A stretch of 64,000 bases of DNA from a virus (Duplodnaviria > Heunggongvirae > Uroviricota > Caudoviricetes). This document shows positions 377 to 16,758 of the stretch, one piece after another; the stretch's first letter is position 1; each line of letters begins with the position of its first letter. The DNA lies in IMG/VR virus record IMGVR_UViG_3300025133_000019; one strand, written 5' to 3'. Made by a program: the position numbers and the translations under genes. The notes under the pieces were generated by a model, which was given only the letters and a program-made list of their open reading frames with translations, was not told where the DNA came from and did not search any database.

Positions 377-398
377 ATCCCTTCCAATCGCTGGTTAT

Positions 399-427
399 AT
401 ATTACTACAAAAGTCCTCGTTTATCAA
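399..427 (-). promoter_or_regulatory. sigma70-type promoter
   Basis: Minus strand TTGATA-17 bp-TAATAT upstream of the 376 ORF. Confidence 0.5.
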
Positions 428-433
428 GAATTT

Positions 434-919: not shown

Positions 920-1250
920 CTTTTTTTAATAGATGTGATAAGAGTAATTCGTGAAAATTATTCTTCCCGTCCTCAAAATATATGAAGTGACGATTGTTAT
1001 CTATCTCCACTAGAAACCCATTATTAAATGAGAAACTAGCTTTTCCCGAAACAGTCTTTTCGTTTCTGGTGATAGTGAAGGTAACAGTGTCTCCTATTTG
1101 AGTGCTAGAAATGTTATCTTTAATATAGGTTAACCACTCCGGATTAGCCTCTAAAGTTTCTTGATCCACCCAAGCGTGATTTCTACAATCTTCAGCCTTT
1201 TCTGAGATATTGTGACCTACAACGTGGCCCTGAGACCTAAATTTTATCAT
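897..1250 (-). CDS. hypothetical protein
   Basis: Start moved to ATG 1250, which forms an ATGA overlap with the stop of the MerR-like gene. Confidence 0.7.
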   Translation of the reverse strand: MIKFRSQGHVVGHNISEKAEDCRNHAWVDQETLEANPEWLTYIKDNISSTQIGDTVTFTITRNEKTVSGKASFSFNNGFLVEIDNNRHFIYFEDGKNNFHELLLSHLLKKDETEKPK

Positions 1251-1663
1251 TTTTTCATCTTTAGGGCTGACTTTATAAAATCTTGAGTAGTTATACATAC
1301 AAAGTCACTAGAAATATTCTTAGGAGTAAATACCTCTCCTAAAACTACGAAACTATGTTTAGGTAGGAATACAAAACAGCTTTTGTAGATATGATCCTCG
1401 TTAGACTCAAAAAACTCTTTAAACTCTGGAAGGAAAGATCTAATAAATTGTATGGAATATTTTTTATTATTAGTATCTCGTAAAGATTTAACCAAGTATA
1501 AAAATACTAAGTCCACTAAAGAGTAGAGCCTAACTTTTAAGTTAGTGCCTATGGAAGGTTTTATTAGATCGGTTTTATCCCAGTACTCTAGTTGCTTATA
1601 AGTAATGTCAACAAGGTTACGAATATCCTTGGGAGTAAAAACGTAATCAGTAGTTCGTCCCAT
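1247..1663 (-). CDS. MerR-family HTH transcriptional regulator
   Basis: FTPKDIRNLVDITYKQLEYWDKTDLIKPS...RLYSLVDL matches the MerR winged-HTH pattern. Confidence 0.8.
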   Translation of the reverse strand: MGRTTDYVFTPKDIRNLVDITYKQLEYWDKTDLIKPSIGTNLKVRLYSLVDLVFLYLVKSLRDTNNKKYSIQFIRSFLPEFKEFFESNEDHIYKSCFVFLPKHSFVVLGEVFTPKNISSDFVCITTQDFIKSALKMKK

Positions 1664-1677
1664 CTGGAACTTCCCTG

Positions 1678-2085
1678 TTATTTGTTAAAAGGGCTGATAA
1701 CAAATTCTTGAACTACTTCTTTTCCGTCAGAAATATCTTGTTCTCCGGAATCTAGCCTAACTAGTTCATCAATCTCCGCTCCCAATTCATCAGGAGTTTC
1801 GTGTGGACATCCACAATCACCTTGAGAGTCTTTGCCCTCTTCTTCTACAATAGAGGTTGTACCAGGAGCATATCCTTGAGTTTCTTTAGGATCTATTTCA
1901 CTGGGAATAGGTGCGTAACCCTCTCCCCCAGATCCGATTTCCTCTGGATCTTGGAAAATAGCGTTCTCCTCGTATTCAGGATGCTCTTCATAAGAGTCAT
2001 CTCGGGAATCTTCTTCCACATACATATCAATGAGTTCCGCTATTTTTTTGATTGATTTTTCGTTATCAAATTTAGTTTTCGACAT
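1678..2085 (-). CDS. acidic hypothetical protein
   Basis: 135-aa E/D-rich ORF with GGAG SD. Confidence 0.7.
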   Translation of the reverse strand: MSKTKFDNEKSIKKIAELIDMYVEEDSRDDSYEEHPEYEENAIFQDPEEIGSGGEGYAPIPSEIDPKETQGYAPGTTSIVEEEGKDSQGDCGCPHETPDELGAEIDELVRLDSGEQDISDGKEVVQEFVISPFNK

Positions 2086-2089
2086 AGCT

Positions 2090-2395
2090 CTATCTCCCAG
2101 ACACTTTAAGAGTATTGAATCCCTTAGCTGTAAGTTGGTATAAATCGGGGAATTTTCTGTTTAAATTCGGAACTTCTACAAGAAGTCCCTCCACCAAAAG
2201 ATTTTGTAAAGATATAGCCTCTTTTTGTCTGCCTGCTCTAAAAGAGAAGAGTCCTTGAGAGTGTTTAAGCCCTAAGGATAGTATATGCTTAGAGAACCGA
2301 TCTAAATTTTTAGATCCGCAAGTTTTAATAGAATTTACTTCTTCTACCTCTGTGCTGGCCTCAAAGTCAAATGTAACGCCGTCGTTTAAATCCAT
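2090..2395 (-). CDS. hypothetical protein (possible winged-helix C-terminus)
   Basis: GAGG SD; LQNLLVEGLL...YQLTAKG resembles a wHTH wing. Confidence 0.6.
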   Translation of the reverse strand: MDLNDGVTFDFEASTEVEEVNSIKTCGSKNLDRFSKHILSLGLKHSQGLFSFRAGRQKEAISLQNLLVEGLLVEVPNLNRKFPDLYQLTAKGFNTLKVSGR

Positions 2396-2517
2396 GGTAA
2401 TTTCCTCGAAAAATACATTGTGAAATCAACCAAATACTAATTAAATATAAAATACGCTCCGCATAATCATTTTTTATTACTATATAATAAGAAACCCGTT
2501 TAATAGGACAATTTACC

Positions 2518-2901
2518 ATGACTGAACCAAATACCATAGATTTTGACGCTGTAGACAAATTAATTGACGACCAGATTAAGAAAGAAGCAAGCACAGAGAA
2601 ATACTTTAAAAATGTGCAAGATTTCCAAAAGAAATTGGGGGACGCTTTAGAAGCTATACGTATTGTAAAAGACCATAGCTTCGGATTAGTTAATACCGAT
2701 AAATATAGAGGTAAAATCCAAAATATCTTAGATGATATGATTGATCTTCTTAGGGAAACAGAGACAGAAAGAGATGGCTTAAATAAGAAAAGATTTAATC
2801 CCATTGAAGTTGAAGATAATACTCCTAAGGAAAGTGGAGGGGAGAGATCTCCTCAAGAAATTTCTGAATCAGGAAAAGTGGCTCCCTTAGAGAAACTCTA
2901 A
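2518..2901 (+). CDS. hypothetical protein
   Basis: 127-aa ORF with AGGA SD. Confidence 0.7.
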   Translation: MTEPNTIDFDAVDKLIDDQIKKEASTEKYFKNVQDFQKKLGDALEAIRIVKDHSFGLVNTDKYRGKIQNILDDMIDLLRETETERDGLNKKRFNPIEVEDNTPKESGGERSPQEISESGKVAPLEKL

Positions 2902-2916
2902 GAGCCCAACTTATAT

Positions 2917-4767
2917 ATGGTTGTTAAGTCTAATACAAATCAACTTCCTGTACACAAAAAACAGGAAGTCCTGTCTTTTAACCCCATTAAAAAAGTCATA
3001 GAGCGTGGTGTTGATACCGCTGTCGGACTTTCAAGAGGGATGACAGGTATTTTGAGAAATAAAGACGCAAAAAGACGGGTTAGTCAAATAAATACCTTGA
3101 TTACCAAGCTAGAAAAAATGGTAATATTTGCCAGAAAAAGAGGGGAGGACCTTAAAGATAATACAGAACTGGAAGACTCCTTAATAACAGAAATAAACAA
3201 ATTAAGACCGTCTTTACTAGAAAAGAGGTACATTAAAACTAAGTTGGACGGGTTTTTTGAAGAGGTCTCTCTAAACGATTACGACTTAGAGAATTACATC
3301 TCTAAAAAGATAAAAGAGAGTTTCGAAAAGGACATCAACTTGCTAGGAGACACGGGTGCCCAAGAAACTCTAATAAAAGATATTTTATCCAGAGGAAACT
3401 TCGAGAAAGAGTTCGTAAAACGAAACCTACTAGAAATTTTAAATCATTCTGCTGACTATGCGAGTATAGCCATAGACTCCCTGGACATAATCCTCGAAGA
3501 ACTCGAAAAATATAAAACTAATTCTAGGGATTTTGAATACCTAAAAAAGATAAAATTTTATGATGATATTGAAAGAATGATTGAGGCAGGAGAGGAGATT
3601 AAACAAGAAATATTTACTTATATATCTGGTGGAGCTGTAAAAAAGATACTGACTTGGATGGGAGAAATCAAGGGTTCTAGCTGGTCTCAAGAGGGGGAGG
3701 GCTCTGTAACGCACTTCACCGATAAAGCACATTTTATTAGAGACCAAGCAGAAAGTCTCTTGGGTCTTAGGGACGGAAGAGAAGCCTTAGAAAAGTTCAT
3801 CTCTACAGAAAACGGAATCCTTAAAAGAAGACTGGAAGAAGTAGAACTAATGCTTGGAGGAGTAGAGAGGCTCCAAGAAAAACATCACGAGCTTGGAGCC
3901 GACTTGGTTAAGTTCAAGCAGGCCGGAAAAGACTTATACGAGTGGATACAAAAAACCCCCGCTAATGAAATAGATGGTCAAGATATAATGGATGCTGCAA
4001 ACGAGGTAGATGCTATTATGGAAGTCCTAGATGAAGTAGAAGCTACTCTAGAAGAAGACGAAAAGAAAGAGGAGGATGGATTTTTTGACTTAATTAATAA
4101 CTCTAAAAAAGTTGTAGACGGTTCTAAATATTTGGTAAAAATGCGGGAAAGCCTAGAAAATAAAATACAGTTATCTATAGGCATAATTACCGGAATGTTA
4201 AAGGACCTGCATCCTGAAGAGCCTGAAAGCCTTAAGGATAGAAAATACGTAGAAGGTCTAAAAGACCTTCTACGTACTCTAAAAGAAATAGAAATAAACG
4301 AGTACACTCTAAGAATTACTTATTTTGAAGACGAATCTAGCAAAGATATTTATATCTCTAACCTATCTTTTGACAAAAGAATAAAGCGTTTGAGCAAAAA
4401 ACTTAAAGTCCTGGAGAACAAGTTCAACTCCCTAGTCACAAACGACACCTCTGAAGTTTTAGCAAGGCAAATAGGATTTATAGTTCAAAGCTTGAGTGTA
4501 CAAGTTTTTAGCTATTTCCTAGCATCTAAGTTTGAAAAAAGAACTGAAAAATTGTTTATAGATTATAAAAACTTAAACAAAATGGTTAGAGCATCCGGAG
4601 GAAGGTCTCTAGTAGGTATATTGTCTACTCTCAAACGTCAGGGTATACAATTATCTAGAGTAAAAGAACTCTTTTCTGTTGCCGAGGATTCCGAGTTAGA
4701 AGAACGAGAGTTAGTTCTGGTAGAAAAAACCGACAGACTCAGGATAATTAAAAACCTAAAGGGCTAA
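2917..4767 (+). CDS. helical/coiled-coil hypothetical protein
   Basis: 616-aa K/E/L-rich ORF. Confidence 0.75.
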   Translation: MVVKSNTNQLPVHKKQEVLSFNPIKKVIERGVDTAVGLSRGMTGILRNKDAKRRVSQINTLITKLEKMVIFARKRGEDLKDNTELEDSLITEINKLRPSLLEKRYIKTKLDGFFEEVSLNDYDLENYISKKIKESFEKDINLLGDTGAQETLIKDILSRGNFEKEFVKRNLLEILNHSADYASIAIDSLDIILEELEKYKTNSRDFEYLKKIKFYDDIERMIEAGEEIKQEIFTYISGGAVKKILTWMGEIKGSSWSQEGEGSVTHFTDKAHFIRDQAESLLGLRDGREALEKFISTENGILKRRLEEVELMLGGVERLQEKHHELGADLVKFKQAGKDLYEWIQKTPANEIDGQDIMDAANEVDAIMEVLDEVEATLEEDEKKEEDGFFDLINNSKKVVDGSKYLVKMRESLENKIQLSIGIITGMLKDLHPEEPESLKDRKYVEGLKDLLRTLKEIEINEYTLRITYFEDESSKDIYISNLSFDKRIKRLSKKLKVLENKFNSLVTNDTSEVLARQIGFIVQSLSVQVFSYFLASKFEKRTEKLFIDYKNLNKMVRASGGRSLVGILSTLKRQGIQLSRVKELFSVAEDSELEERELVLVEKTDRLRIIKNLKG

Positions 4768-7700
4768 TTTAAGTCTATAGCCATATCACCTAAATAGTGG
4801 TATGGAATATCATCAGTAATACTTTGGTCCTTAATTTCCTCGTCTTCTTTTAAAGCGTTCTCAATTAAGTCTTCTTCCTCATTCTCTATAAAATTCTCTT
4901 TTATAACAGAATCTACACTCTTTTCAATTCGAGAGGAAGTTTTGAAGTGCTCCGGAAACTCCTCTTGTATAGCCAAGAAGGTCTGATTAAATCCTCTTTC
5001 ACTTATAAGCCTACTGAGATAACTAATAACCCTGGATTTAGCCTCGTTAACTTTCTTCTCAAAATTATACTTATTATCGAGATTCATATTCATAACCTCA
5101 AATTCAGCTTTGTACTCTTCCCTTATAAGTTTCTTGATCAAGATTCCCAATTGAATAACTGGATTTATAATTTCGAATCTTGCTAAACTCTCTGCTAAAT
5201 CGTTTTTATTCTCTTCCTCTAAATCTGGAAAAGCCCTTGATAACAAGTCTTGGAAAAAAGGAACGCTCACATAAAGGTTCATGATCTCTCTTGGAGAAAC
5301 TAACGAAGTTTCCGTTATTTCCTTTTTCTTTCGTTTTTGGTTTAACTCTTGGACCAAGGCTCGATTAACCTGAGGCTTGATATTTTTCAGGAGATCAATC
5401 CAAGTTTTATAGATTAAGTCTTTTAATGCAGAAGGAGAAATATCTGCGTTGGATATTCTACTTTTTATTTTCCTATTTAAAATAGTTCGGTAAGAAGGTA
5501 TATTGGCCAAATCTAATCCTAATTGATTGTTCAAATTGGACTTTAGAAACTTAGGCAGTAATTTCTTTTCAATACTGGTTATCCTGTTCTGATAGTCTTC
5601 TTCTGTTTCACTCTCTTCTTGTTGTAGCAGAGAACCCTCTTGCTGAGATTTTATCCAGCCAGCTAGCTCTTCCAGCTTAGTATCTATAAACTTGCCGTTG
5701 TCTAGTTCATCTATATTTAAATACTGGTCACTCAAGGAAGTTAAATCTTGCATCGTCATTTTTAGTTGACCTAGCTGCTGATCTCTTTCTTTTTCATAAT
5801 TAGGGTTTTTAAATAAGAAGACTTCTCTAGATTCTTCTGGAAGACTGCTTAAATCGGGCTTAATAGTTCTCAAGTTATGCTGCATAACAGCTAATTTATC
5901 TTTGGCTGTTTGCTGAGCTTCATCGGCTATGTAATGCTTGTACCACTGATATTCTATAGAAACTTCTCCGTACTTATCCTTAATAGCCTTACTAAAAGGG
6001 CCACTAAGCATGTCGAAAATGTTTTCGAACTCATTTTTAAAGTGTTCTATTTTTTGAATATACGCATAGTTTTCTTTCTGAGGATCATTAATCCTGGTGT
6101 TGGTTTTATCTAAAGAAACGAATAGTAATTTATTTTTAGCTTGGTCTCTTCTATCCATACCAGTATCTGCTATTGACCCCTCGGAATCTTTGTTTATAAG
6201 AACTCCGTTGGGGGTCATTTCGACTCTGGTGAAATTATTAGCTTCATTCTTAAATACGGTAAGAAAAAAGGCTTCGAAATTAGTGTTATTAATTGTTTCC
6301 CCGTTAACGGTTCTTTTTCTAGATATTGCTCCGCTAGATGTTATTAGCTGATCAAAAAACATGTCTACAACACTTTTACTAGATCTATGTAAATTATGAA
6401 GCTCTTCTAGTGTGCTTGAATATTCTTCATCTCCGGTATTAGATGTTCTATACCCGTAAATAAGATAAGGGAACAAATACATCTCAGCCCATCCAGCGAT
6501 ATCTCCATAAGTATCCTGTATAATTCGGCCTTCGCTGTCTTTTGCAGGGCTTTTAAACCTTTGTGTAACATATTTTTTAGCGCTCATAACAGGTTTCTGT
6601 GTATTAAACCAGTTCTCTCTTTCTGCTAAAGCGGTTAGTAGTTTATATGGAGAAGACGTATCTATTTTTGTGTCGTTCAAATAAAACCCCAAGGAACTAT
6701 TCCTCAGTTCCTCAGTCCAACTAGTTTTATCCCTTCCAAGTAAAGAATCAGTAAGCTTGTTTACATACCCGCCTCTTTTGTGAAAAGTCTTATTAATAGA
6801 ATTAATAGATTTCCCCCAATCGAAATTCTTACCCTCTTTCACGTATTTACTCATTAGAGTAAGATTTTTACCGATGGAAGACTTACTTTTTCTTGAAAGG
6901 CTGTCTAATAATTTTAAAGCCTTGTTCCACTTTCTGTACCCTATTTGGTGATGTTCCTCTAATTTCGAGAATAGCTCATAGCCTAAATCTTTTACCATTC
7001 TATTTAAAGCGTACAAGAAAGTTTTCCAGTATTTATCTGTTGCTTTACTATTTATAAACTGGGAGATAAGGTCTTCTGACTCATTTTGCAGAATTCGCAC
7101 TCCTCTCGTAAAAGTTTCTTGAACTCTTTTCTTATCTTCATTGGACTTAAATTTAGAGCTGTCAGATAGCAGGGTTTCCAGGTAGGTTAAACCGAACGCC
7201 TCTTTGCCGGACTTCCCAAAGAATATTGTGTTGTTAATCTTTTTTAGCTGTGCAAGCCTGACTTTCTTTATTTTAAGTTTTAGTTCCCTGCTTTCGGGGT
7301 CTTTAGTTTTTGACCCTAGAGTGTAAGTTGTAGCATAATTTTCTTCTATCAAAGTCTCTATGTCTACTTTATAGTCAGCCAAAAATTTCAACAAAGTCTT
7401 GAGCTGACCACCCCATGTCAACTGATTCTTATGGTAATTAGAAATTCCCAGAGACTTTCTTTTGAGCTTGTCAATAAAAATGGGCCAACTGGAACTAGAT
7501 ATTTTATCTCTGTATTTATCAAGGACGAATCTGAGGCCAGCTTTATAACTTTCCAGAGTAAGATTCAATTCCTGCTTAGTCATTAAGTTATCTAGATCAT
7601 TAATCTTGTCCCAAGAACTCTTCCTCACTTTCTTGAATTCCACTTTTATTTTTTGAATTATATCTGTAATGGAGTCGTCACTTAAAGTCTCTAGTACTTC

Positions 7701-8345
7701 ATCTAGATCTAAAGACTCTGTGAACTCGATTAACTGTTCTCGTTGGGCGAAATTTTTACGGTGTAGCTCATCAAGAAGAAACTTAAGATTAACTTCGACT
7801 TCTTCGTGTATACTGGTTATAATTTTTTTAGCTTTTTGAGCATTACTTTTCTTTTCCTCTTCTACTAGATTTGCTGTAGTTTGGTCAGTTTGGTCCCTTA
7901 TACCAGAATCACTTTGATATAGAGCTTGCCTTATATTATCAATAGCCACAAGCTTTTCTTGGGGAGTACCAGCTCCTAGAGACGTACCAAGCACTTTTCT
8001 CATGTCTTGATAATTATTTTTTTCAATGCCTTTCAGAGATAATATGGAATGCTCCCAATCAGGAACCCTTTCTAAGTCATTCTTATACAGATCTATTCTA
8101 GCTTTTATTTGCTTTCCTAGATCAACGGACATAGAGACTAGGTCGTCGTGGCCTAAGCTACTATGGACTTGGACGGCATTGCCAGATTCCTCATCGTCTA
8201 AAGTATCAACTACCACGGAAGAAATCTCTGTATCTAAGGCATAGTCAGTTTCTGGTATTATGTTTTCTCCGTCCTCAGATTCTTCTCGTAACTTTTGTTC
8301 GAGAGACTTCTTCAGAGTAGAAAGAAGAGTGTGTCGGGAAGCCAT
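4764..8345 (-). CDS. large hypothetical protein (1193 aa), possible internal virion protein
   Basis: Long ORF with GGAG SD and no recognised motif. Confidence 0.75.
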   Translation of the reverse strand: MASRHTLLSTLKKSLEQKLREESEDGENIIPETDYALDTEISSVVVDTLDDEESGNAVQVHSSLGHDDLVSMSVDLGKQIKARIDLYKNDLERVPDWEHSILSLKGIEKNNYQDMRKVLGTSLGAGTPQEKLVAIDNIRQALYQSDSGIRDQTDQTTANLVEEEKKSNAQKAKKIITSIHEEVEVNLKFLLDELHRKNFAQREQLIEFTESLDLDEVLETLSDDSITDIIQKIKVEFKKVRKSSWDKINDLDNLMTKQELNLTLESYKAGLRFVLDKYRDKISSSSWPIFIDKLKRKSLGISNYHKNQLTWGGQLKTLLKFLADYKVDIETLIEENYATTYTLGSKTKDPESRELKLKIKKVRLAQLKKINNTIFFGKSGKEAFGLTYLETLLSDSSKFKSNEDKKRVQETFTRGVRILQNESEDLISQFINSKATDKYWKTFLYALNRMVKDLGYELFSKLEEHHQIGYRKWNKALKLLDSLSRKSKSSIGKNLTLMSKYVKEGKNFDWGKSINSINKTFHKRGGYVNKLTDSLLGRDKTSWTEELRNSSLGFYLNDTKIDTSSPYKLLTALAERENWFNTQKPVMSAKKYVTQRFKSPAKDSEGRIIQDTYGDIAGWAEMYLFPYLIYGYRTSNTGDEEYSSTLEELHNLHRSSKSVVDMFFDQLITSSGAISRKRTVNGETINNTNFEAFFLTVFKNEANNFTRVEMTPNGVLINKDSEGSIADTGMDRRDQAKNKLLFVSLDKTNTRINDPQKENYAYIQKIEHFKNEFENIFDMLSGPFSKAIKDKYGEVSIEYQWYKHYIADEAQQTAKDKLAVMQHNLRTIKPDLSSLPEESREVFLFKNPNYEKERDQQLGQLKMTMQDLTSLSDQYLNIDELDNGKFIDTKLEELAGWIKSQQEGSLLQQEESETEEDYQNRITSIEKKLLPKFLKSNLNNQLGLDLANIPSYRTILNRKIKSRISNADISPSALKDLIYKTWIDLLKNIKPQVNRALVQELNQKRKKKEITETSLVSPREIMNLYVSVPFFQDLLSRAFPDLEEENKNDLAESLARFEIINPVIQLGILIKKLIREEYKAEFEVMNMNLDNKYNFEKKVNEAKSRVISYLSRLISERGFNQTFLAIQEEFPEHFKTSSRIEKSVDSVIKENFIENEEEDLIENALKEDEEIKDQSITDDIPYHYLGDMAIDLN

Positions 8346-8346
8346 T

Positions 8347-8718
8347 TTACTCCACTAAGTCTAAAAATTTTGTTAAAACGTTTTTTAAATCTTTAGTTTC
8401 ATTTAATCTAGCAAACTTAAGACTTGACAAATATTTCTCGGAGCTAAGGTCTTTAGCTTTAGCTATTGCCATAATATTTTCAAATTCTCCGGTACTAAAA
8501 TCCACGCTTACCCTGCTTGTTACTTCCACTCGATCCTCTGTTTTCGAAGCATTCCTAACCTTAGAAAGGTCTAGATGAATGTCTGCATTCAAAGCCAAAG
8601 TTCTAATGAATTCTGAAATACTCATGTTATATTGAGCAGCTCGTCTAGCAATGTCGTCATGCTCAGCTTCAGTAAGCCAAAAGTTAATTCTTTTATCTCG
8701 TAATCTATTATCAGCCAT
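8347..8718 (-). CDS. ribbon-helix-helix (MobC/CopG-like) DNA-binding protein
   Basis: RDKRINFWLTEAEHDDIARRAAQYNMSISEFIR is an RHH pattern; weaker second copy at RVSVDFSTGEFENI. Confidence 0.7.
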   Translation of the reverse strand: MADNRLRDKRINFWLTEAEHDDIARRAAQYNMSISEFIRTLALNADIHLDLSKVRNASKTEDRVEVTSRVSVDFSTGEFENIMAIAKAKDLSSEKYLSSLKFARLNETKDLKNVLTKFLDLVE

Positions 8719-8728
8719 TATGTTATCC

Positions 8729-9223
8729 TCAACTAATTAACAACTTCCCTATACTATCTAGAAGTCGTATAATTTCTTTTCTATTAGAAAAAGAAAATTC
8801 CTCGTTATTTAACTCGTATTTTTCATAAATAACGTTTAATGCTTGCCCAAGTTTCTGGAAAAAGAGTCTAAATCTATCGTCATCAATATGTTTTATCTTA
8901 GCTCCGATTCTGACTGCCTTCCCACCAATAACCATGTCTAAAAAGTAATTCCCATTTGTATCTTCTTTAAGGCCAACCTTCAATTCATGAGGGTTTTGGC
9001 TTCTAAATCTGAATTTTATGTTTACTTTATTCCCAGATTTTCTTATGTCTACAAAATGTAAAGCCCCTTTGTGGGCAATTGACTTTCTTATCAGAGACTC
9101 AATATCTAACCCCAAAAAGTGGGACCTGTCTTTATTTTTTATATCTAATGGAATATTTTCGTTATCTAAAAATAACTCCGAAAATCTTTTTATAGAGGCT
9201 TCTAGTTGGTTATTGTTTATCAT
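8729..9223 (-). CDS. hypothetical protein
   Basis: ORF; ATG 9223 preferred over the track's non-ATG start. Confidence 0.65.
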   Translation of the reverse strand: MINNNQLEASIKRFSELFLDNENIPLDIKNKDRSHFLGLDIESLIRKSIAHKGALHFVDIRKSGNKVNIKFRFRSQNPHELKVGLKEDTNGNYFLDMVIGGKAVRIGAKIKHIDDDRFRLFFQKLGQALNVIYEKYELNNEEFSFSNRKEIIRLLDSIGKLLIS

Positions 9224-9272
9224 ACAAAAATTCCCAAATATTAAAAAACTATCCAGAAATATCACAAACCCC

Positions 9273-9301
9273 TTGATTTACTGGAGTAAGCATGTTATTA
9301 T
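9273..9301 (+). promoter_or_regulatory. sigma70 promoter with extended -10 for HU gene
   Basis: TTGATT-17 bp-TATTAT with TGn before the -10. Confidence 0.6.
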
Positions 9302-9342
9302 ATGGAATATAAGTACTTTATATAACAACTAAGGAAATTACT

Positions 9343-9636
9343 ATGAATAAGAAAGATCTAATTAGAGCAATATCAGACCGAGCTACTGTTTCGGCTGGTC
9401 AGGAAGTCTCTCAAGCTACTGTAGCCAGTGTTATTGATAGCTTTTGGGAAGTAGTTAGCGAAGCAGCTTCTACTAGTGGTCATATCAAAGCTTGGAATAT
9501 GTTGGATATTAAGCGTGTCCAAACTAAAGAGCGACAAGGTTATAACCCTAAAACTAGGGAGCCCATCACTATTCCAGCGGGAGAAACTGTAAAAGTTAAG
9601 CCGATGGCTAGACTGAAGCAAACAGTTTTATCGTAA
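9343..9636 (+). CDS. hup: HU/IHF-family histone-like DNA-binding protein
   Basis: MNKKDLIRAIS...RQGYNPKTREPITIPA...VKVKP signature. Confidence 0.92.
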   Translation: MNKKDLIRAISDRATVSAGQEVSQATVASVIDSFWEVVSEAASTSGHIKAWNMLDIKRVQTKERQGYNPKTREPITIPAGETVKVKPMARLKQTVLS

Positions 9637-9655
9637 CATAAAAGCTTCACGTTTT

Positions 9656-9689
9656 AAAGAGCCTCGGTTTAGCCGAGGCTCTTTTTTTT
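9656..9689 (+). terminator. intrinsic terminator
   Basis: AAAGAGCCTCGG-tttag-CCGAGGCTCTTT followed by a T run. Confidence 0.9.
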
Positions 9690-9720
9690 ATTTGCTATTC
9701 ATTATATTAAAGGTTGAATT

Positions 9721-10965
9721 ATGGTTAAAAAAAGCACTACCAAGTCTCCTGTTATAATAGATACTAACGTACTCTTAACAGATCCCTACATCTTAAATAA
9801 GTTCTCAAACAGAGAAATACTAATGCCTGTGGCGATTCTAAAAGAGCTGGACACCTTCAAGAAAGGGGCCTCTCTTATAAACAAGAACTCCAGAACAGTT
9901 ATAAGATTATTCGAGAAGATAAGAAAGACTCCTGTGGAACAAAGAAATGTTACATTCATGTCTGCCTCAGAGTACGACATAAAAAATCCTGTGGATGACA
10001 TAATTATAGAAATAGCCAAAAACCGGGGAGCTAAAATTATATCTAATGATATAAATGTAAGAGTCAGTGCTACTTGTGAAAATATAGACGCAGAAGATTA
10101 TAAACCACATAAAAATTTGGAAAGACACTCTCCCCAGTTATATAAAGGGCATACCCTACTCAGGAAAAACCCTTTTAGCAGACCTGAAAACTTGAGAAAG
10201 ACTCCTAATCACTATTTTGTATATGACGATGATAAGAACAACAAAAAAATATGTAAGTTTGTTAACGGAACTCTAAATCTTATAAAGTACCAGAGAATCC
10301 AACATATAGAAGGAATTGCCCCTTTAAATATATACCAGCAGATGGCTATGGACGCTCTGATGTCCCCTGAAATAGAAGTTGTTTCTTTAATAGGGAATGC
10401 TGGTACAGGTAAAACTTTGTTAGCTCTTGCTTGTGGTATTCAACAATGTAAATCATCATCCAACCCAAAATATTTAAGTGTATCAGTGGGACGAGCTATT
10501 GTTCCTATCGGAAGGGATATAGGAGCGCTGCCAGGAGACCTTGAAGATAAGATAAAACCTTATTTGTCTCCAGTATATGATAATTTAGAAGTTTTAGCAG
10601 AAGTAAACGGAGACCCTTACGATCAAACTTATTCAAATGATTTGTTTGACTCCCATATACTGTCTATCCAAGCTTTCTCTTTTATGAGAGGTAGAAGTAT
10701 AAGTAAGAAATACCTTATCATAGACGAAGCTCAAAACTTAACTCATCATGAAATTAAGACTATTGTAACTCGTGCTGGAAAAGGTACAAAGATAGTGTTT
10801 GTAGGTGACCCACAACAAATAGACATACCAGAATTAAATTCTGAAAATAACGGTTTAACTTACCTAACAGAAGCTTTCACGGGTCAAAAATGCTTTGCTA
10901 CCGTGACTCTAGAAAAAGTAGAGAGATCTGGATTAGCTGACTTGGCGGTAAAAATTCTAAAATAA
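9721..10965 (+). CDS. phoH: PhoH-family protein with N-terminal PIN domain (PhoH2/YlaK type)
   Basis: IIDTNVLL PIN motif; GNAGTGKT Walker A; GALPGDLEDK, RGRS, IIDEAQN, TRAG, GDPQQID. Confidence 0.92.
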   Translation: MVKKSTTKSPVIIDTNVLLTDPYILNKFSNREILMPVAILKELDTFKKGASLINKNSRTVIRLFEKIRKTPVEQRNVTFMSASEYDIKNPVDDIIIEIAKNRGAKIISNDINVRVSATCENIDAEDYKPHKNLERHSPQLYKGHTLLRKNPFSRPENLRKTPNHYFVYDDDKNNKKICKFVNGTLNLIKYQRIQHIEGIAPLNIYQQMAMDALMSPEIEVVSLIGNAGTGKTLLALACGIQQCKSSSNPKYLSVSVGRAIVPIGRDIGALPGDLEDKIKPYLSPVYDNLEVLAEVNGDPYDQTYSNDLFDSHILSIQAFSFMRGRSISKKYLIIDEAQNLTHHEIKTIVTRAGKGTKIVFVGDPQQIDIPELNSENNGLTYLTEAFTGQKCFATVTLEKVERSGLADLAVKILK

Positions 10966-10969
10966 AGTA

Positions 10970-10999
10970 TTGTGCATAAACACGTTACTGTGCTATATT
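10970..10999 (+). promoter_or_regulatory. sigma70-type promoter, extended -10
   Basis: TTGTGC-18 bp-TATATT with TGn. Confidence 0.4.
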
Positions 11000-11040
11000 T
11001 ATTCTGTTGACGTAAAACATTAAACAGGAGAAAGACGAGC

Positions 11041-11865
11041 ATGGCTTTAACATCTTTATCACAAAACCTTCTTCAAAGGGCTGGAGTACACACCTCCGCA
11101 CCAACAGAAGTAGTGACCCCCGAACCTGAAGTTGCTCCAGAGGTAGAGCAGCCCGTACAAGTGGAAGCCGTAACTCCGGCTTTTCAAGCTGTCTGTAATG
11201 ACAGAGATATTAACACTCAAGAAAATCTTACGACTTACGCTCTGAATTTGGAGAGGTATTCCGATAGTGGTAACTTCTTCACTCTAAGTTACAACGCAGA
11301 CCTAGGTTTTATCAGGATAGCTGTCACAGACGTTCCTGATAACGCAAAACAGATAGGAGCCACTCACAAAGTTAAGCTTAATAGCTTGATTAAAACATTT
11401 CTAGGTGTTACCGCTCCTTTTAACGCTCAGCAATACTGGTACAGCTCAAAACCAGTTGTAGACGTATTCTTTAGTCATGACAACTTCCCTTTGGTGGATG
11501 AAGTGGATTTGACTCTTGCTGATCTATCTACCCCAGGAGCTGTTTTAACAAGAGCTGCTAGAGGTTCTAAAAACACTTCGGTGAATCTGTTCTTAAGCTC
11601 TAAAATCACAGAACAACTCGTCAATCCTAATAGACCTTACGTAAGGGTTTATTACAACACAGCGTTACGATCTATGAAGCTAGAGACTTTGGTAGATGAA
11701 GCTCCGGGTTTGTACAACTTTTACTTGAATGCTTCCGAAGAGCTTGCGATTACAAGTATGCAAGTACCTAACAATATAGCTGAGACATTCTTTGTTAGTG
11801 ATGACTCAGTTACTTCACAGAGAGTGCAAAACCAAACTGCAACCTCTGTGGTCCTCTCCTTTTAA
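11041..11865 (+). CDS. hypothetical protein
   Basis: 274-aa ORF, AGGAG SD, own terminator. Confidence 0.75.
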   Translation: MALTSLSQNLLQRAGVHTSAPTEVVTPEPEVAPEVEQPVQVEAVTPAFQAVCNDRDINTQENLTTYALNLERYSDSGNFFTLSYNADLGFIRIAVTDVPDNAKQIGATHKVKLNSLIKTFLGVTAPFNAQQYWYSSKPVVDVFFSHDNFPLVDEVDLTLADLSTPGAVLTRAARGSKNTSVNLFLSSKITEQLVNPNRPYVRVYYNTALRSMKLETLVDEAPGLYNFYLNASEELAITSMQVPNNIAETFFVSDDSVTSQRVQNQTATSVVLSF

Positions 11866-11883
11866 CACCTACTACTCTCGCAC

Positions 11884-11912
11884 AAAAGCCTCAGATTCGT
11901 CTGGGGCTTTTT
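11884..11912. terminator. bidirectional intrinsic terminator
   Basis: AAAAGCCTCAGA-TTCG-TCTGGGGCTTTTT between convergent genes. Confidence 0.85.
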
Positions 11913-12472
11913 CATTCCTCCCAGAGATGGTCATCGTAATAATCAAAGTCATAGTCTACTAGATATCCTCTAGACCCACTCCAATCACTATACATATACT
12001 CATCTCTAGGATAATCCCAGAAAGTTGCCGGAGACCCAGAACCTTCTCCCTCTGGATAATCAGAACCGCTTTGTTGGTTGTCCCACTCTCTAAGCAGGGA
12101 GCTGTCTGGATCATTTAAATAGGTGTAATTAAGATTCTGCATGAATTTCTTTCTTCCGAAAGACACCATGTTTCCGGAAACCTCTATGCTAACTCGGTAT
12201 ACGCCTCTCCTTATAACACCTTTAAGGTCATTATAAGCAGCCTTTACAAGCATCTCTGATCCATTAAGTTGGTTTGCCAAGCTTTTTATATCAAAGGTTA
12301 GCAGATCTTCAGGGCTTAATACCCCGGATTGTAATAAAAGACGGTGCAAATAAATTTTTATAGTTTTAAATGTTTCTATGTCTTCTAGGGATTGGAGATA
12401 GATTATTTTTCCGAGATACCTTAAAACCTGGAGTTTAACAGTATCTTTATTTTGATCTCCGTAGTCGGCCAT
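11912..12472 (-). CDS. hypothetical protein
   Basis: 186-aa ORF coupled by TAATG overlap. Confidence 0.7.
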   Translation of the reverse strand: MADYGDQNKDTVKLQVLRYLGKIIYLQSLEDIETFKTIKIYLHRLLLQSGVLSPEDLLTFDIKSLANQLNGSEMLVKAAYNDLKGVIRRGVYRVSIEVSGNMVSFGRKKFMQNLNYTYLNDPDSSLLREWDNQQSGSDYPEGEGSGSPATFWDYPRDEYMYSDWSGSRGYLVDYDFDYYDDHLWEE

Positions 12473-13302
12473 TACTTAATTTTTTTGATAATCTGGTCCA
12501 TCTCTTCGCTGAATGGCCCATCGCTCTTGAGCTTCACGTAGTCCTCACGATAATATGATCCTAGTTCAGCTAAAAGATCATCAAACTTATCTTCCAAGTT
12601 TTCTCTACTCTCAACTTCTATATTTAAAGAATTTATAAGGAATCTATGAAATCTGTGATCCCCTTTTTTCATGGAAAAACTGGGGGGAGAATAATTATAA
12701 GCTGAGTCGGATATTCCAGCTTCTTCTAAGGCATGTTGAATATCTGTTTTTATATTAGCGTCCTCAAACATTATTAAAAGTCTTCCTATATTGTAATTTT
12801 GAGTTTCTTTTTCAGGCTCTACTTCTTCCATAGGAGCTGGCTCTTCCGTATCTTCTTCCCCGGAGCTTTCCTCTCCTTCACCAGGAAGCTCTTCGGTATC
12901 CCCAGATTCTTCTGAGGTATCTTTAACAGAATCCTCTCCATAAAATTCCCTCATTTCTTCTTCGGTCAAAGCGTTTTCATGGGTCTCGTACTCTTCTTCT
13001 TTAGGTTGATCGGCCTCTTCTGGAGCAGTTTCTTCGGTCATAGTCTTTTTAACTTCTTTAGCCAACATCACATTAACTGTCTCTAAAAGTTTTGAAGCTT
13101 GCTCCCCGGTTTTGGAAGACACAAACTTGTTTATAACTTCTTCAGGAGTAACGTCTGTTTTAGACAGTTCTTTGTTAAGGGTGTCCATATCTAAAAGAAA
13201 CACGTCTTCTAACCCATCTTGTCTAGGTTCGTAGTTAGCGTAAGGAGCTTGGTTCTGTATTAAAGTGGAATCATCTATTCTAGAAAGTTTAGGATTTTTC
13301 AT
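12472..13302 (-). CDS. acidic hypothetical protein
   Basis: 276-aa E-rich ORF. Confidence 0.7.
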   Translation of the reverse strand: MKNPKLSRIDDSTLIQNQAPYANYEPRQDGLEDVFLLDMDTLNKELSKTDVTPEEVINKFVSSKTGEQASKLLETVNVMLAKEVKKTMTEETAPEEADQPKEEEYETHENALTEEEMREFYGEDSVKDTSEESGDTEELPGEGEESSGEEDTEEPAPMEEVEPEKETQNYNIGRLLIMFEDANIKTDIQHALEEAGISDSAYNYSPPSFSMKKGDHRFHRFLINSLNIEVESRENLEDKFDDLLAELGSYYREDYVKLKSDGPFSEEMDQIIKKIK

Positions 13303-13573
13303 TTTTTATCTTCTTCTTCACAATAGTGGATGGTATAGAGCAATGAGGACAGCATTGTTCATTAATAAATTCTTGCCATAAAGTAGGTTTAGATAGAAAA
13401 GGCTCTAAGCAGAACTCACATTTAAACAGTTTAAATAGCTCTACTTTGGATTCCTTCTGTAAACCAAAGAAATCTTCGTGAAGCTCTATACTAGAAGTTG
13501 AGGTGGTATAGTCGTCTGTATTCTCGAAAGCAGTATCTTTTAGTAGTTCATCTATTTCAGCGTTAGTTAACAT
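13289..13573 (-). CDS. small zinc-ribbon protein
   Basis: CEFC...CPHC; GGAGG SD. Confidence 0.6.
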   Translation of the reverse strand: MLTNAEIDELLKDTAFENTDDYTTSTSSIELHEDFFGLQKESKVELFKLFKCEFCLEPFLSKPTLWQEFINEQCCPHCSIPSTIVKKKIKNEKS

Positions 13574-13575
13574 AA

Positions 13576-13977
13576 TTAGCCCCTCCAGAAATTAGGATCT
13601 CCGGCAGTGAACTTATAAATTTTCCTACCCAGGATAATCACATCCTTTTCAAAATGAATATCCGCTCTAATAATACCATAACTAACAGTAAGCTCTGTGG
13701 GAAACTTCCCTATTGTCTTAACAACTTTACCTTCTAACTCTTTTTTTAAGTCTTCTTCCTTAATATTAAGAAGCTTTATCCCGTTTTCTTTAAGGAATTG
13801 AGATAATAGTTTAGGTTTTATGGCGCTGGCAGGAGGGCGATAAAAGTCCTTTACCTTGTTTCCTGTGAAAGCTGTTCTAGAAAATCCCACATAAATAGCG
13901 GATAGAACATCCTTCATTTCTTTGTCTTTTGAGGAATATATTTTCAAAAAGTTGTTTACAGAATCTTGTAGCGCCAT
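13576..13977 (-). CDS. hypothetical protein
   Basis: 133-aa ORF, first gene of a leftward operon. Confidence 0.7.
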   Translation of the reverse strand: MALQDSVNNFLKIYSSKDKEMKDVLSAIYVGFSRTAFTGNKVKDFYRPPASAIKPKLLSQFLKENGIKLLNIKEEDLKKELEGKVVKTIGKFPTELTVSYGIIRADIHFEKDVIILGRKIYKFTAGDPNFWRG

Positions 13978-14059
13978 AAAATAACCTAGATAATAAAAAA
14001 CTAGTTTTCCTTTAAAACACGGATTTTAAGATTCCTTTATTCATGCGGGTTTGGATTAG

Positions 14060-14400
14060 GTTGGAGTATATATATAATATAAGTAACTATAATTTTAATA
14101 TAAAATTGAGTTTCTTATTATATAGAGATAAATAATATATTCTTTTCTTTCTTTAGAAAAGATAAATCTTTTCAATAAAAGTAATATATATCTATAATAT
14201 ATTATATAGATCAGAGAAGAATTTTAGAAAAAGATAAAACAAAAATTTTATTCGGAAAACTTCTTGTTCAAAAGAAAGAAGATCTAAACTCCTTATTCAG
14301 AAAAGTTTCCCAGTTTCTTATCTAGAAAAAGAAATAAAAGCTGTTTATCTAGGAAATTGTTCTTAAAGCTTATATTAAGCAAAATAGAGGGGGTAAAAAT
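14060..14400. other. AT-rich non-coding region with degenerate short repeats and palindromes; candidate replication origin
   Basis: No ORF; TTTAGAAAA(A)GATAAA x2, TTATTCRGAAAA x2, TTATCTAGRAAA x2; gene orientation diverges here. Confidence 0.45.
14068..14114 (+). repeat. 47-bp exact direct repeat, copy 1
   Basis: ATATATATAATATAAGTAACTATAATTTTAATATAAAATTGAGTTTC, identical to 14712-14758. Confidence 0.95.
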
Positions 14401-14539
14401 TTTTAGACAGCCCAACCTATTAAAAATCAGAGAAAACCTTGAGAATACCCTTTAATTTTGTTTAAACTGGGTTATCCTTGGTATGAATGGGGTTATTATT
14501 CTGGATTAACGCTAAGTAAAAGCAATTTAAATTCTTTTC

Positions 14540-14569
14540 TTGACTTTATTTTGTAAGGTGTGTTAGTAT
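14540..14569 (+). promoter_or_regulatory. sigma70 promoter with extended -10
   Basis: TTGACT-18 bp-TAGTAT with TGn; next start codon is more than 600 nt downstream. Confidence 0.6.
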
Positions 14570-14573
14570 AGTT

Positions 14574-15150
14574 GTGCTGATAACGCCTCCCTCTTGGACC
14601 AGCCAGCACTAAGCTCTGAGCCCTAGCATTATGACTAGGAGTGTACGAGCGGAAACAGGAGTTTGGGACTACCGCAAAGATCAGTCAGAACCACCAAAAA
14701 TAACAAGCAAAATATATATAATATAAGTAACTATAATTTTAATATAAAATTGAGTTTCAAAAATATCAGCTTAAAACAACGACAGGCAACCTAGATGGCC
14801 TCAGGTAAGCTAGTGAAGAATTTGGCCGGAGACCGACTCCAAAAAAACGTTAACATCAAGCGTCCTTGACTAAGACGTGTTTAGTATTAAGTCGCAGTTT
14901 AATAAAATTAAGACAATGTAGTATCCAATAGGGTATTCATGCAGATACACAAGCTGTCATAACAGGTTCGTGTTGACGCTGTATTCTAGAGGATATGTTG
15001 ATTGTTTTATAACAGAATCTTTATTGGTTAGGTTAGTCATACAATTTTTTCGTCAAGAGAATATTGTTTAGCTACGCTTATGTCATAAAGATTTAAAGAC
15101 ATTCAAATATTAACCTAAAGAGTACGAGTTTAGGCATTTTTCAGCGTTAT
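14574..15150 (+). ncRNA. candidate long structured ncRNA or structured leader, family unknown
   Basis: ORF-free, GC-richer than flanks, many stems (GTGCTG/CAGCAC, CCTAG/CTAGG, GGAG/CTCC, CGTC/GACG, TAAAACAA/TTGTTTTA), 5' ATAACGC can pair with 3' GCGTTAT. Confidence 0.5.
14712..14758 (+). repeat. 47-bp exact direct repeat, copy 2 (inside the candidate ncRNA)
   Basis: Identical to 14068-14114. Confidence 0.95.
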
Positions 15151-15210
15151 ACTCATTTATAATTCTTTGTTTTATTGTTTTAAATAGCATTGAAACAGGA
15201 GAGAATTTTT

Positions 15211-15486
15211 ATGGCTATATCAGGAATAGGAGCTAAAACTTTTTTTGAAGGGTTGAGCGACGGCAATTTGTTCTATATTCAACAGAGTGACGGAACAGTT
15301 TTAACTTGCTCCTTTAAAGAACTTAAGCCTAGTAACGCAGGTTTGGGATTTTCGGTTTATGGCGTAAGTATATTCCCCCACTCCGTTGATTACATGGTGA
15401 CCTATCTCAATTTGGACAGTATAGGGTCGAGTAATAGTCTTATAGTAGACATATCTGCCGACAAAAATTCTCTGTCTTTCTCTTAA
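15211..15486 (+). CDS. small protein paralogous to the N-terminus of the next gene
   Basis: AGGAG SD before ATG 15211; DGTV.C.F...G.SI.P.S.D..VTYLNLDS.GS shared with 15499. Confidence 0.75.
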   Translation: MAISGIGAKTFFEGLSDGNLFYIQQSDGTVLTCSFKELKPSNAGLGFSVYGVSIFPHSVDYMVTYLNLDSIGSSNSLIVDISADKNSLSFS

Positions 15487-15498
15487 GGAATTATAAAT

Positions 15499-16758
15499 AT
15501 GGCTATTACTAAATCACAGGCTGTTACATTTTTTACAAGTCGTACCAAAGGGGACGGATTTTGGGCGCAAAAGGCTGACGGAACCGTAGTTAGATGCGGA
15601 TTTTCCGTGTTTGACCCTGATGATGTAAACACTCCTACAACAGGTATTGTTACATTCGGCATAAGCATTTATCCTATATCTGCTGATTTTGAGGTTACGT
15701 ATCTCAATTTGGATAGTTTGGGGTCTGCGGATTCCGTTTTTATAGATTTCCAGTTAGACCTAGCTGACATTACCTTCTCTACTTTGTTTGGAGGGGGAGG
15801 TGCTTTAGCAACTTCCGTCAAAGCTCCCGTATTAGTAGCTACTACAGCTCTCTTAACGGCTACGGCTAGTGGATCTGGGGTTGGTAAAACGTTAACTGGA
15901 GATACTAGTGCTCTAACTATTGATGGAATTTTGTTAACTGTGGATAAGCGTGTTTTGGTAAAAGACCAAACCACTCTCAAAGATAACGGAATTTATACGT
16001 TAACACAACAAGGAAACGGAGTAGTTCCCTGGATACTAACAAGAGCTATTGATTTTGACGAGGAAGGGGAAGTTGTAGGAGGAGTTTCTGTAGCTATTCA
16101 AACAGGAACTGCTTTAGATGACACTTCTTGGGTTCTTTCTAATATAACGGGTACTGCTAGTATAGACACTGATGATTTAGTCTTTACCCTTTATCCAACT
16201 AAGATATTAGAGGATGTTAAATCCCAGGAAATAACTCTTTCGTTGTCTGGGCAAGCTACGTATGATTTTAGTGTTACAATGAATACTAGTTCACCAAAGA
16301 TATTGTCTACTCGATTGTTTTTATCAACAGTTGAATTAGGGTTTGATAAAAATGTGGATTTAACTTTTTATAGCTCAGTAGCTAGGAAGGGTTCCCAAGC
16401 TATCCAAAGATTTGAAGGGACTTTATCACAAGTAGAGACGGACGGAGCTGTGAGTATTAATGATACCTCAGTAACTGTTGATGATGTGCTATCTGTACAT
16501 CCGAATCAATTGTTATATAGTATACAATCCGCAGAGTTTATGCGAGTTTCTGGAGTAGATACTCCTAGTAAAGAATTGAGCCTTGAGGATGCTTTGGCAA
16601 GTGGTATTTCCACGGGAACCGGGCTTTCTAAAGTGATGGAAGTAGCAGGATTCTCTGTTTATGATGAGACCAACAACAATATGGTTTACATGAGAATTAA
16701 GTTTCCGGAAGTAGTTACAGAAGACTTTAAACTAGTAATGGTTTACACGGAGTTTTAA
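15499..16758 (+). CDS. virion fibre/structural protein
   Basis: VATTA...TIDG...RVLVKDQT...NGIY...W.LTR module typical of phage tail-fibre-related proteins. Confidence 0.75.
   Translation: MAITKSQAVTFFTSRTKGDGFWAQKADGTVVRCGFSVFDPDDVNTPTTGIVTFGISIYPISADFEVTYLNLDSLGSADSVFIDFQLDLADITFSTLFGGGGALATSVKAPVLVATTALLTATASGSGVGKTLTGDTSALTIDGILLTVDKRVLVKDQTTLKDNGIYTLTQQGNGVVPWILTRAIDFDEEGEVVGGVSVAIQTGTALDDTSWVLSNITGTASIDTDDLVFTLYPTKILEDVKSQEITLSLSGQATYDFSVTMNTSSPKILSTRLFLSTVELGFDKNVDLTFYSSVARKGSQAIQRFEGTLSQVETDGAVSINDTSVTVDDVLSVHPNQLLYSIQSAEFMRVSGVDTPSKELSLEDALASGISTGTGLSKVMEVAGFSVYDETNNNMVYMRIKFPEVVTEDFKLVMVYTEF

Follow-up and report, generated by a model that had tools for sequence, protein, structure and literature searches.

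A letter-perfect noncoding direct repeat that evolves in concert in a divergent control region of large uncultured marine phages

Introduction

Why should a phage keep two letter-perfect copies of a short noncoding sequence at the very place where its transcription changes direction? The question is raised by a 47-nt direct repeat in IMG/VR record IMGVR_UViG_3300025133_000019, of which a stretch of 64,000 nt (the window) was analysed. Its source is a large uncultured marine phage; proteins of the stretch are found on contigs of up to 374 kb, and the public runs that contain this DNA are marine or aquatic metagenomes, with no RNA datasets listed among them. The two copies, at 14068-14114 (copy 1) and 14712-14758 (copy 2), lie 644 nt apart in an open reading frame (ORF)-free gap of 1,233 nt that separates a leftward operon from a rightward block of genes. 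The initial annotation of this DNA had proposed that copy 2 is the guide segment of a structured RNA of about 570 nt, with scaffold on both sides, which would address the upstream copy.

Short noncoding repeats seldom stay letter-perfect within one genome while they diverge between related ones, and where they do, this is usually the sign of a process that depends on homology or of a recognition system under tight co-evolution. In this case the two copies frame the most AT-rich DNA and a strong conserved promoter, at the switch between the leftward genes and a largely structural rightward block of more than 48 kb, in a group of large, uncultured marine phages with almost no annotated genes. 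We found that the pair evolves in concert in three lineages and that the element is conserved beyond its base composition. Tentatively, and with somewhat less than an even chance of being right, we read it as a cis-acting DNA element of the promoter/operator type that would be used twice and kept identical by homology-dependent copying. Its function lies between a few models, namely a promoter/operator element, an R-loop origin, RNA pairing, and initiator sites. Whichever explanation holds, these phages probably have in this 1.2-kb module their main region of control or initiation, and the module is small enough to be synthesized and tested in a laboratory host.

The repeat pair and its relatives

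The two 47-mers are identical at every position, as the initial annotation had claimed. A search with the 47-mer at up to three mismatches gave two matches in 64 kb and no third, while none was expected from 100 shuffles. The core of the element has no further occurrence in the 64 kb, and the idea that it represents a general promoter class was rejected because the core is present only at the two copies.

Both copies are found 644 nt apart in five independent JGI/ENA contigs (L011-L015). In the Logan assembly graphs the 47-mer is a separate node, and in two runs its depth is about twice that of its three neighbours (X1, 42.5 against 23.2, 19.4, and 18.8; X2, 20.7 against 7.6, 9.5, and 8.1). 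A single contig from run X3 runs unbroken from 14201 through copy 2 to 15700. Since five independent assemblies agree and the repeat has about twofold depth in two runs, the duplication is real. An assembly artefact or chimera, which the initial annotation had kept in view, is suggested by the breaking of short-read graphs at the repeat, but its probability is negligible, because besides these assemblies, the node depth, and the bridging contig, two further lineages with several assemblies each share the anatomy with different sequence. No deletion or circle joints and no one-copy or three-copy variants were present in the Logan contigs, which cannot reveal rare forms. Small differences between strains are found beside copy 1. 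A (TA)n run at 14066 has a TA insertion in L012, L014, L015, and run X2, and a GC insertion is found at 14044, within the conserved left-flank motif, in L013.

Relatives were sought by protein and by DNA. There were no DNA relatives in INPHARED, no syntenic relative in IMG/VR when it was searched with two flank proteins, and only chance matches in IMG/VR to DNA patterns from the leader and the left-flank motif. A 429-kb viral contig found in IMG/VR by a PhoH profile was rejected because it is not syntenic. Two related lineages were found through flanking proteins. Clade R (L002-L010 and L039) was found via a 65%-identical relative of the 133-aa flank protein, and clade C (L034, also L037 and L056) was found as a 16.6-kb contig via a 64%-identical relative of a 419-aa protein. 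The flanking proteins of both lineages are 60-65% identical to those of the window, and gene order is alike in all three. A HMMER scan of 1.84 billion representatives with the 133-aa protein gave only three further small-protein clusters, and the contigs of the distant homologues P0006 and P0008 end 138-273 nt upstream of the gene. A scan of metagenomes with DNA patterns found clades R and C again and no new lineage. The comparisons below are therefore between three distinct lineages, the window, clade R, and clade C.

Concerted evolution of the element

All three lineages have a perfect direct repeat of their own sequence at the same two places. The repeat is 47 nt long with a spacing of 644 nt in the window, 45 nt with a spacing of 494 nt in clade R, and 47 nt with a spacing of 588 nt in clade C. 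The left border of the repeat falls in the same alignment column in all three lineages and the right border within two columns, and the base before copy 1 is always T while the base before copy 2 is always A. Between lineages the element is 72-79% identical, with about one quarter of the positions changed, and every difference is mirrored in both copies of a lineage. Therefore, the pair evolves in concert. The initial annotation had suggested asking whether the embedded segment varies between phages yet always matches the upstream copy, and in these three lineages it does. In clade C, the Logan unitigs stop exactly 30 nt into copy 1, as a repeat predicts at k = 31.

The element is also conserved between lineages beyond what its composition (11-16% GC across the three clades) would give. 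The ungapped identity between the window and clade R elements is 0.756, while 20,000 shuffles gave a mean of 0.39 and a maximum of 0.69. This conservation exceeds that of the tract 3' of copy 2 and that of the copy 1-to-promoter spacer, which is 52-62% identical where shuffles give about 50%, and thus the element is constrained in itself. The conserved blocks are TATAATAT, TAA, TAATTTT, and AAAAT, and the last two form the arms of a dyad. Its loop measures 7 nt in clade C but 3 nt in the other two. The features of the region are collected in Table 1.

Table 1. Features of the divergent control region and its flanks, in window coordinates
Feature	Position	Strand	Remarks
First gene of leftward operon, 133 aa, no family	13576-13977	-	Anchor for finding relatives; start 90-93 nt from copy 1 in all three clades
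Conserved motif GCGGGTTTGGATTAGGTT, 18 nt	14045-14062		5 nt left of copy 1; identical in window and clade R, 15/18 in clade C
Most AT-rich island of the 64-kb window	14061-14280		14-19% GC (100-nt windows); short palindromes and TATAAT-like hexamers on both strands; includes copy 1
Copy 1, AT-rich element, 11% GC	14068-14114	+	Homologous perfect copies at L002 5933-5977 (reverse strand) and L034 5793-5839
Spacer, variable length	14281-14539		Poorly conserved; similarity near random
Promoter P2, sigma70-type	14540-14569	+	TTGACT, 18 nt, TGnTAGTAT; predicted start near 14576
Leader, P2 to copy 2	14576-14711	+	Conserved patches GCTGATAA, CAGCCAG, GGAAACAGG..TGGGAC, AAGATCAG
Copy 2, 47-nt element	14712-14758	+	Exact repeat of copy 1; within the P2 transcription unit
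Variable 3' tract	14759-15113	+	Not conserved in relatives; window-specific long hairpin at about 15000-15110
Hairpin CCTAAA/TTTAGG, then CATTTTTC	15114-15142	+	About 70 nt before the rightward gene
First gene of rightward block, 91 aa	15211-15486	+	Block of >48 kb, mostly co-oriented, reaches the window end and includes tail-fibre-like genes

Promoter, leader, and conserved spacings

The gap is the main strand switch of the window, and the cumulative GC skew turns there. Several descriptive statements of the initial annotation hold for this region. No ORF is present in any of the six frames across 13978-15190, so the tract after the promoter is free of ORFs as described; it is also GC-richer than its flanks, with a GC of 0.48 at 14550-14699 against 0.15-0.30 upstream. 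The predicted sigma70 promoter, here called P2, is likewise found in the relatives, in clade C (11 of the 12 consensus positions plus the TG) and in clade R.

Two distances are held in the three clades. The first, from copy 1 to the leftward start codon, is 90-93 nt, and the second, from the predicted P2 start to copy 2, is 136, 123, and 122 nt, while the adjacent tracts differ by more than 100 nt. From copy 1 to the promoter the total is 425, 290, and 383 nt, and the tract after copy 2 is 455, 278, and 291 nt. The segment made up of promoter and leader has a GC of 42-45% and a pairwise identity of 62-67%. On the evidence of the promoter alone, the P2 transcript likely carries a sense copy of the element.

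Promoter-like hexamers are also found at homologous places in all three clades. On the minus strand, a promoter-like site lies wholly within the element, and its predicted start coincides with the left border of the element in every clade.

No conserved peptide or frame was found in the leader across the three clades. A 31-codon ORF at 14631-14726 was rejected as a hidden gene because it reads the conserved GGAAACAGG in another frame than clade R does. In clade C, a frame of 110 codons without stops (L034 6164-6496, minus strand) spans P2, the leader, and copy 2; it lacks a start codon near its beginning, is interrupted in the window and clade R, and is probably no gene. On the other side of the module, the leftward product of clade R is 157 aa long and was probably called 24 codons too early (L002 6001-6072). 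Its N-terminal extension spans the conserved noncoding motif beside copy 1, has no counterpart in the protein of the window, and is probably spurious.

A promoter/operator-type element that may be used twice

What could keep 45-47 nt identical within each lineage while they change between lineages? The repeat is perfect in all three lineages and yet about one quarter of its positions differ between them, which calls for fast homogenization. Perfect identity is better explained by homogenization at the DNA level than by selection for pairing, since one mismatch in a 47-bp duplex would cost little, and selection for protein contacts is a poorer explanation because it would not fix the positions that make no contact. 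Copy exchange would then be more frequent than point mutation within 47 nt. The 1-nt slip that clade C shows in one copy at the right edge, just outside the identical tract, looks like the edge erosion expected under conversion. Moreover, direct repeats promote deletion and yet the intervening segment survives, which implies a need for this segment.

Such an exchange has a precedent. In T4-type phages, recombination between promoter/stem-loop motifs of about 50 nt (promoter-early/stem-loop, PeSL) is documented (PMC2839356, PMC4122927). Like a PeSL, the element is a short AT-rich motif that combines promoter hexamers with a small stem-loop, and in both cases near-identical copies in direct orientation stand on either side of a segment. 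The homologous exchange demonstrated between PeSL copies would explain the concerted evolution here, which in turn is no more than indirect support for PeSL-like exchange. However, PeSLs are numerous, lie around ORF cassettes in hyperplastic regions, and have the order terminator, promoter, Shine-Dalgarno (SD), ATG. In the phages studied here there are two copies in 64 kb, the segment between them is noncoding with a strong promoter, the arrangement is stable in three lineages, and there is no SD-ATG. Membership in the PeSL regulatory cassettes was therefore rejected, as there are only two copies, no ORF between them, no SD-ATG, and a weak dyad.

The model that we favour would work as follows. 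The main divergent control region contains the element, with its TATAATAT core and A/T dyad, at two places and in one orientation. Copy 1 lies at the edge of the most AT-rich island and near the start of the leftward operon, and copy 2 lies downstream of the strong conserved P2, which points to the long rightward structural block. From its left border the element would fire leftward, and copy 1 would thus drive the leftward operon. Copy 2 would be the same promoter, placed head-on to P2 across about 125-135 bp. If both copies were regulated together, expression of the leftward operon would be coupled to interference with the read-through of P2 into the structural genes. Gene conversion or exchange of the PeSL kind between the copies would keep them in concert within a lineage and let them drift between lineages. 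The P2 transcript would carry the sense copy merely because copy 2 lies in its path, and the leader would be conserved in its sequence, with no large folded RNA. Among the single readings we consider this one the best, since the element is conserved, its distances to the leftward gene and to P2 are fixed, and the hexamers are homologous.

Face-to-face promoter switches are known from coliphage 186 (pR/pL) and from pCF10 (prgQ/prgX). Leftward firing of the element would make a similar convergent pair of copy 2 and P2, at about the distance given above, with the leader fully overlapping. We know of no face-to-face switch in which an identical copy of one of the promoters is reused elsewhere. If recombination indeed keeps the copies identical, the pair would provide a natural measure of the shortest homology tract that suffices for concerted evolution in phage genomes.

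Several points weigh against a twice-used promoter. Hexamers resembling -10 and -35 boxes arise easily in DNA of 85-89% A+T, and the minus-strand -35 is weak (TTTATA/TTTAGA). The conserved blocks also include the stretch that would separate the two hexamers of a sigma70 promoter. The folding energy of the dyad hairpin is no better than that of shuffles. With only two copies in 64 kb, the element represents no general promoter class. The conserved, GC-richer leader would be explained only as the overlap of two facing promoters. Gene conversion is inferred from the identity of the copies, with no one-copy or three-copy variants seen in the Logan contigs, and both the promoter activity of the element and its direction are predictions from sequence. 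Finally, the comparison covers only three distinct lineages.

Alternative explanations

An R-loop origin of the T4 oriF/oriG type is the first alternative, and we consider it unlikely. In this model the P2 transcript would form a persistent hybrid at copy 2, which would serve as the unwinding element, and the hybrid would be processed into a primer for the leading strand; copy 1, together with the AT-rich island next to it, would give this origin another site for unwinding or priming. The minimal anatomy of oriF and oriG is a promoter with an A+T-rich element after it, and T4 origins coincide with points of transcriptional divergence and of a shift in nucleotide bias (PMC3016281). The module is similar in its sequence anatomy and its location: a strong conserved promoter precedes an element of 11-16% GC by 122-136 nt in all three clades, at the main strand switch and the turn of the cumulative GC skew, and the most AT-rich island of the 64 kb is found at 14061-14280. 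However, GC skew also tracks gene orientation and thus is not independent evidence, and the strongest AT island is at copy 1, upstream of P2 and not downstream of it. The T4 unwinding element is single, independent of sequence, and can be swapped (PMC3016281). Because it needs no specific sequence, a T4-type origin predicts no sequence conservation, no second identical copy, and no concerted evolution, whereas here the element shows sequence conservation and has, in every lineage, an identical second copy upstream of the promoter. Furthermore, there are no tandem iterons, no replication genes were recognized among the scanned neighbours, and DnaA boxes were absent from the window and clade R, with a single 8/9 match in clade C.

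The second alternative keeps the core of the initial annotation, that the identity of the two copies serves pairing. The 47-nt sense segment of the P2 transcript would pair with the bottom strand of copy 1 or with the leader of the leftward mRNA, selection for pairing would keep the identity, and an R-loop formed in trans would open or prime the AT island. The segment varies by lineage but always equals the upstream copy, P2 and its distance to copy 2 are conserved, and copy 1 adjoins the DNA that melts most readily in the window. In addition, leftward promoter-like sites are found 104-126 nt to the right of the start of copy 1 in all three clades, and transcription from them would place an antisense copy 1 in the leftward leader. 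On the other hand, pairing predicts near-identity and not the complete lack of mismatches in three of three lineages, as the loss of one base pair in 47 would have almost no effect. It requires no conservation between lineages, which the element nevertheless shows. The sequence around the segment includes no conserved scaffold, and no RNA-guided protein, recombinase, or reverse transcriptase was recognized nearby among the scanned neighbours. A co-transcriptional hybrid at copy 2 would also form far more easily than an invasion in trans. We therefore regard pairing as an improbable basis for the identity. The specific proposal that an RNA from the conserved promoter anneals in trans about 500-650 bp upstream, where it would open or prime an origin or pair with the divergent leader, and that the match is selected, is a long shot too; concerted evolution is compatible with it and does not require it. 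If true, this would be an RNA-addressed origin or switch without known relative.

The pair might also be a passive footprint, an explanation that we hold to be about as improbable as pairing. A noncoding cassette made up of the spacer, P2, and the leader would have integrated by homologous recombination at a 47-nt site that was already there, with direct repeats left on both its sides; the cassette would be useful, and the second copy would have no function and stay identical only through conversion. A Campbell-type or mini-circle insertion yields this anatomy, as in the PeSL model, and the fixed borders of identity and the edge erosion in clade C are as this explanation would have them. But direct repeats promote deletion, and the arrangement is kept in three lineages whose proteins are 60-65% identical. 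The conserved distance from P2 to copy 2 likewise suggests that copy 2 matters where it is placed.

Finally, the copies could be two identical sites for one sequence-specific phage protein (an initiator, a partition protein, or a repressor). They would then act like separated sets of iterons or operators, with looping or handcuffing to join them over the AT-rich region and P2. Identity within genomes and difference between them is the pattern of iterons and of nut or operator sites that co-evolve with a protein, the dyad is conserved, and small DNA-binding proteins (an HU-like and a NikA-like ribbon-helix-helix (RHH) protein) are encoded 4-6 kb away in all three clades. The lambda nutL and nutR sites and the iterons of plasmids are near-identical within a genome, differ between relatives, and co-vary with their protein. 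They are 12-22 nt long and usually not perfectly identical, and the nut sites are inverted since their operons diverge, whereas the repeats here are direct and 45-47 nt long. Perfect identity over such a length is unexpected for protein sites, as positions outside the contacts tolerate change. The change of the dyad spacing from 3 to 7 nt in clade C does not suit a rigid dimer site, there are two copies only and no tandem array, and no candidate protein is linked to the site. We consider this explanation quite unlikely. An iteron-type origin was rejected, as two copies lie 494-644 nt apart with no tandem array and no initiator gene was recognized among the scanned neighbours.

Tests for a large structured RNA

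The large RNA of the initial annotation is not supported. Rfam 15 gave no match at gathering scores in the whole window, including ROOL, OLE, GOLLD, HEARO, tmRNA, RNase P, 6S, and group I and II introns, which agrees with the earlier failure to recognize a tmRNA, RNase P, 6S RNA, or group I/II intron. At E-values up to 10, the region 13900-15300 gave only chance-level matches (E 2.4-5.8) with scores far below gathering, and no tRNA or tmRNA was found. The tract had been described as full of stems. Its folding energies are ordinary, with a z-score of -1.69 on the plus strand and -0.68 on the minus strand for 14575-15150, and the long-range pairings that had been listed are in sequence that the relatives lack. 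The leader, a 137-nt segment from promoter to copy 2, has a z-score of +0.26 in the window and +0.79 in another clade.

The comparison of clades is in agreement. RNAalifold found no shared structure from the start site to copy 2 in the three clades (-2.0 kcal/mol on the plus strand and -0.2 on the minus strand), with low power at three sequences, and pairwise and three-way runs gave at most a possible short closing helix of GCUGAU with AUCAGU. Summed pair probabilities on the plus strand gave no helix common to all three clades. The tract after copy 2 gave no blastn alignment between the window and clade R. Because this supposed 3' scaffold is not conserved, the picture of a 570-nt scaffold-guide-scaffold RNA fails. 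From the interpretation in the initial annotation, two parts stand: the embedded segment tracks its upstream copy, and the promoter would transcribe a sense copy in all three lineages. The large scaffold RNA does not. The likeness to ROOL, OLE, GOLLD, HEARO, and guide-RNA systems was limited to the proposed size range and the idea of an embedded matching segment, while the tract studied here matches no Rfam family at any threshold, lacks a conserved fold and a conserved 3' half, and has no effector gene associated with it.

Other RNA-based systems were rejected as well. Neighbouring genes were scanned against Pfam, PHROGs, PDB sequences, and the ESM Atlas, and a 1193-aa and a 616-aa protein could be given no assignment. 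A guide system of the CRISPR, OMEGA, or bridge-RNA kind has no conserved scaffold here, and no Cas, TnpB/IscB, or IS110 recombinase domain was found in the scanned neighbours. The 1193-aa neighbour was considered as a candidate effector and gave no Pfam, PDB-sequence, or useful Atlas match. A diversity-generating retroelement was rejected because the copies are identical and noncoding and no reverse transcriptase domain was found in the ORFs scanned from 2917 to 23256. An antisense RNA of the P1/P7 c4 type was rejected because the repeats are direct, not inverted, and there is complementarity only with the opposite strand.

The 3' tract and neighbouring genes

Within the variable tract, run X1 contains a second strain, whose unitig has 17 substitutions over the 182 positions of 14953-15134 and identical flanks. 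Both strain variants of 14940-15160 fold at -55 and -59 kcal/mol on the plus strand and at about -35 on the minus strand. Nine of the transitions between the strains fall in pairs predicted for the 3' hairpin that is specific to the window, and seven of them are compatible with G-U pairing on the plus strand only. This is a weak hint of plus-strand transcription, which the pairing model also would have, from a hairpin that is absent from the other clades.

The hairpin at 15114-15142 may be a terminator or attenuator of P2 transcripts ahead of the structural block. An analogous hairpin with a T-rich tail is found in clade C (L034 6634-6655), and in the window and clade C the first rightward gene begins 60-90 nt downstream of such a hairpin; for clade R a short hairpin was noted on visual inspection only. 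A conserved TTCTTTGTTTT follows the hairpin position in all three clades.

Among the recognizable genes of the window are those for PhoH, for a class II ribonucleotide reductase with an intein, for tail-fibre-like proteins, and for the HU-like and NikA-like RHH proteins. The NikA-like RHH protein is followed, in adjacent or slightly overlapping frames, by the 1193-aa protein (window 4764-8718, minus strand; L002 11300-12474; L034 1-507), and each of the three clades has this pair, at a distance of about 6 kb from the repeats. Residues ~18-87 of the 133-aa leftward protein match a domain that is repeated 24 times in P0005 (6935 aa) and 16 times in P0007 (4684 aa), and the protein thus resembles a single repeat unit of very large, probably surface, proteins. 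On the other side of the gap, a 68-nt stretch of the 91-aa gene (15361-15428) is 71% identical to 15658-15725, in the N-terminal part of the following 419-aa tail-fibre-like protein. The two proteins therefore have paralogous N-terminal modules.

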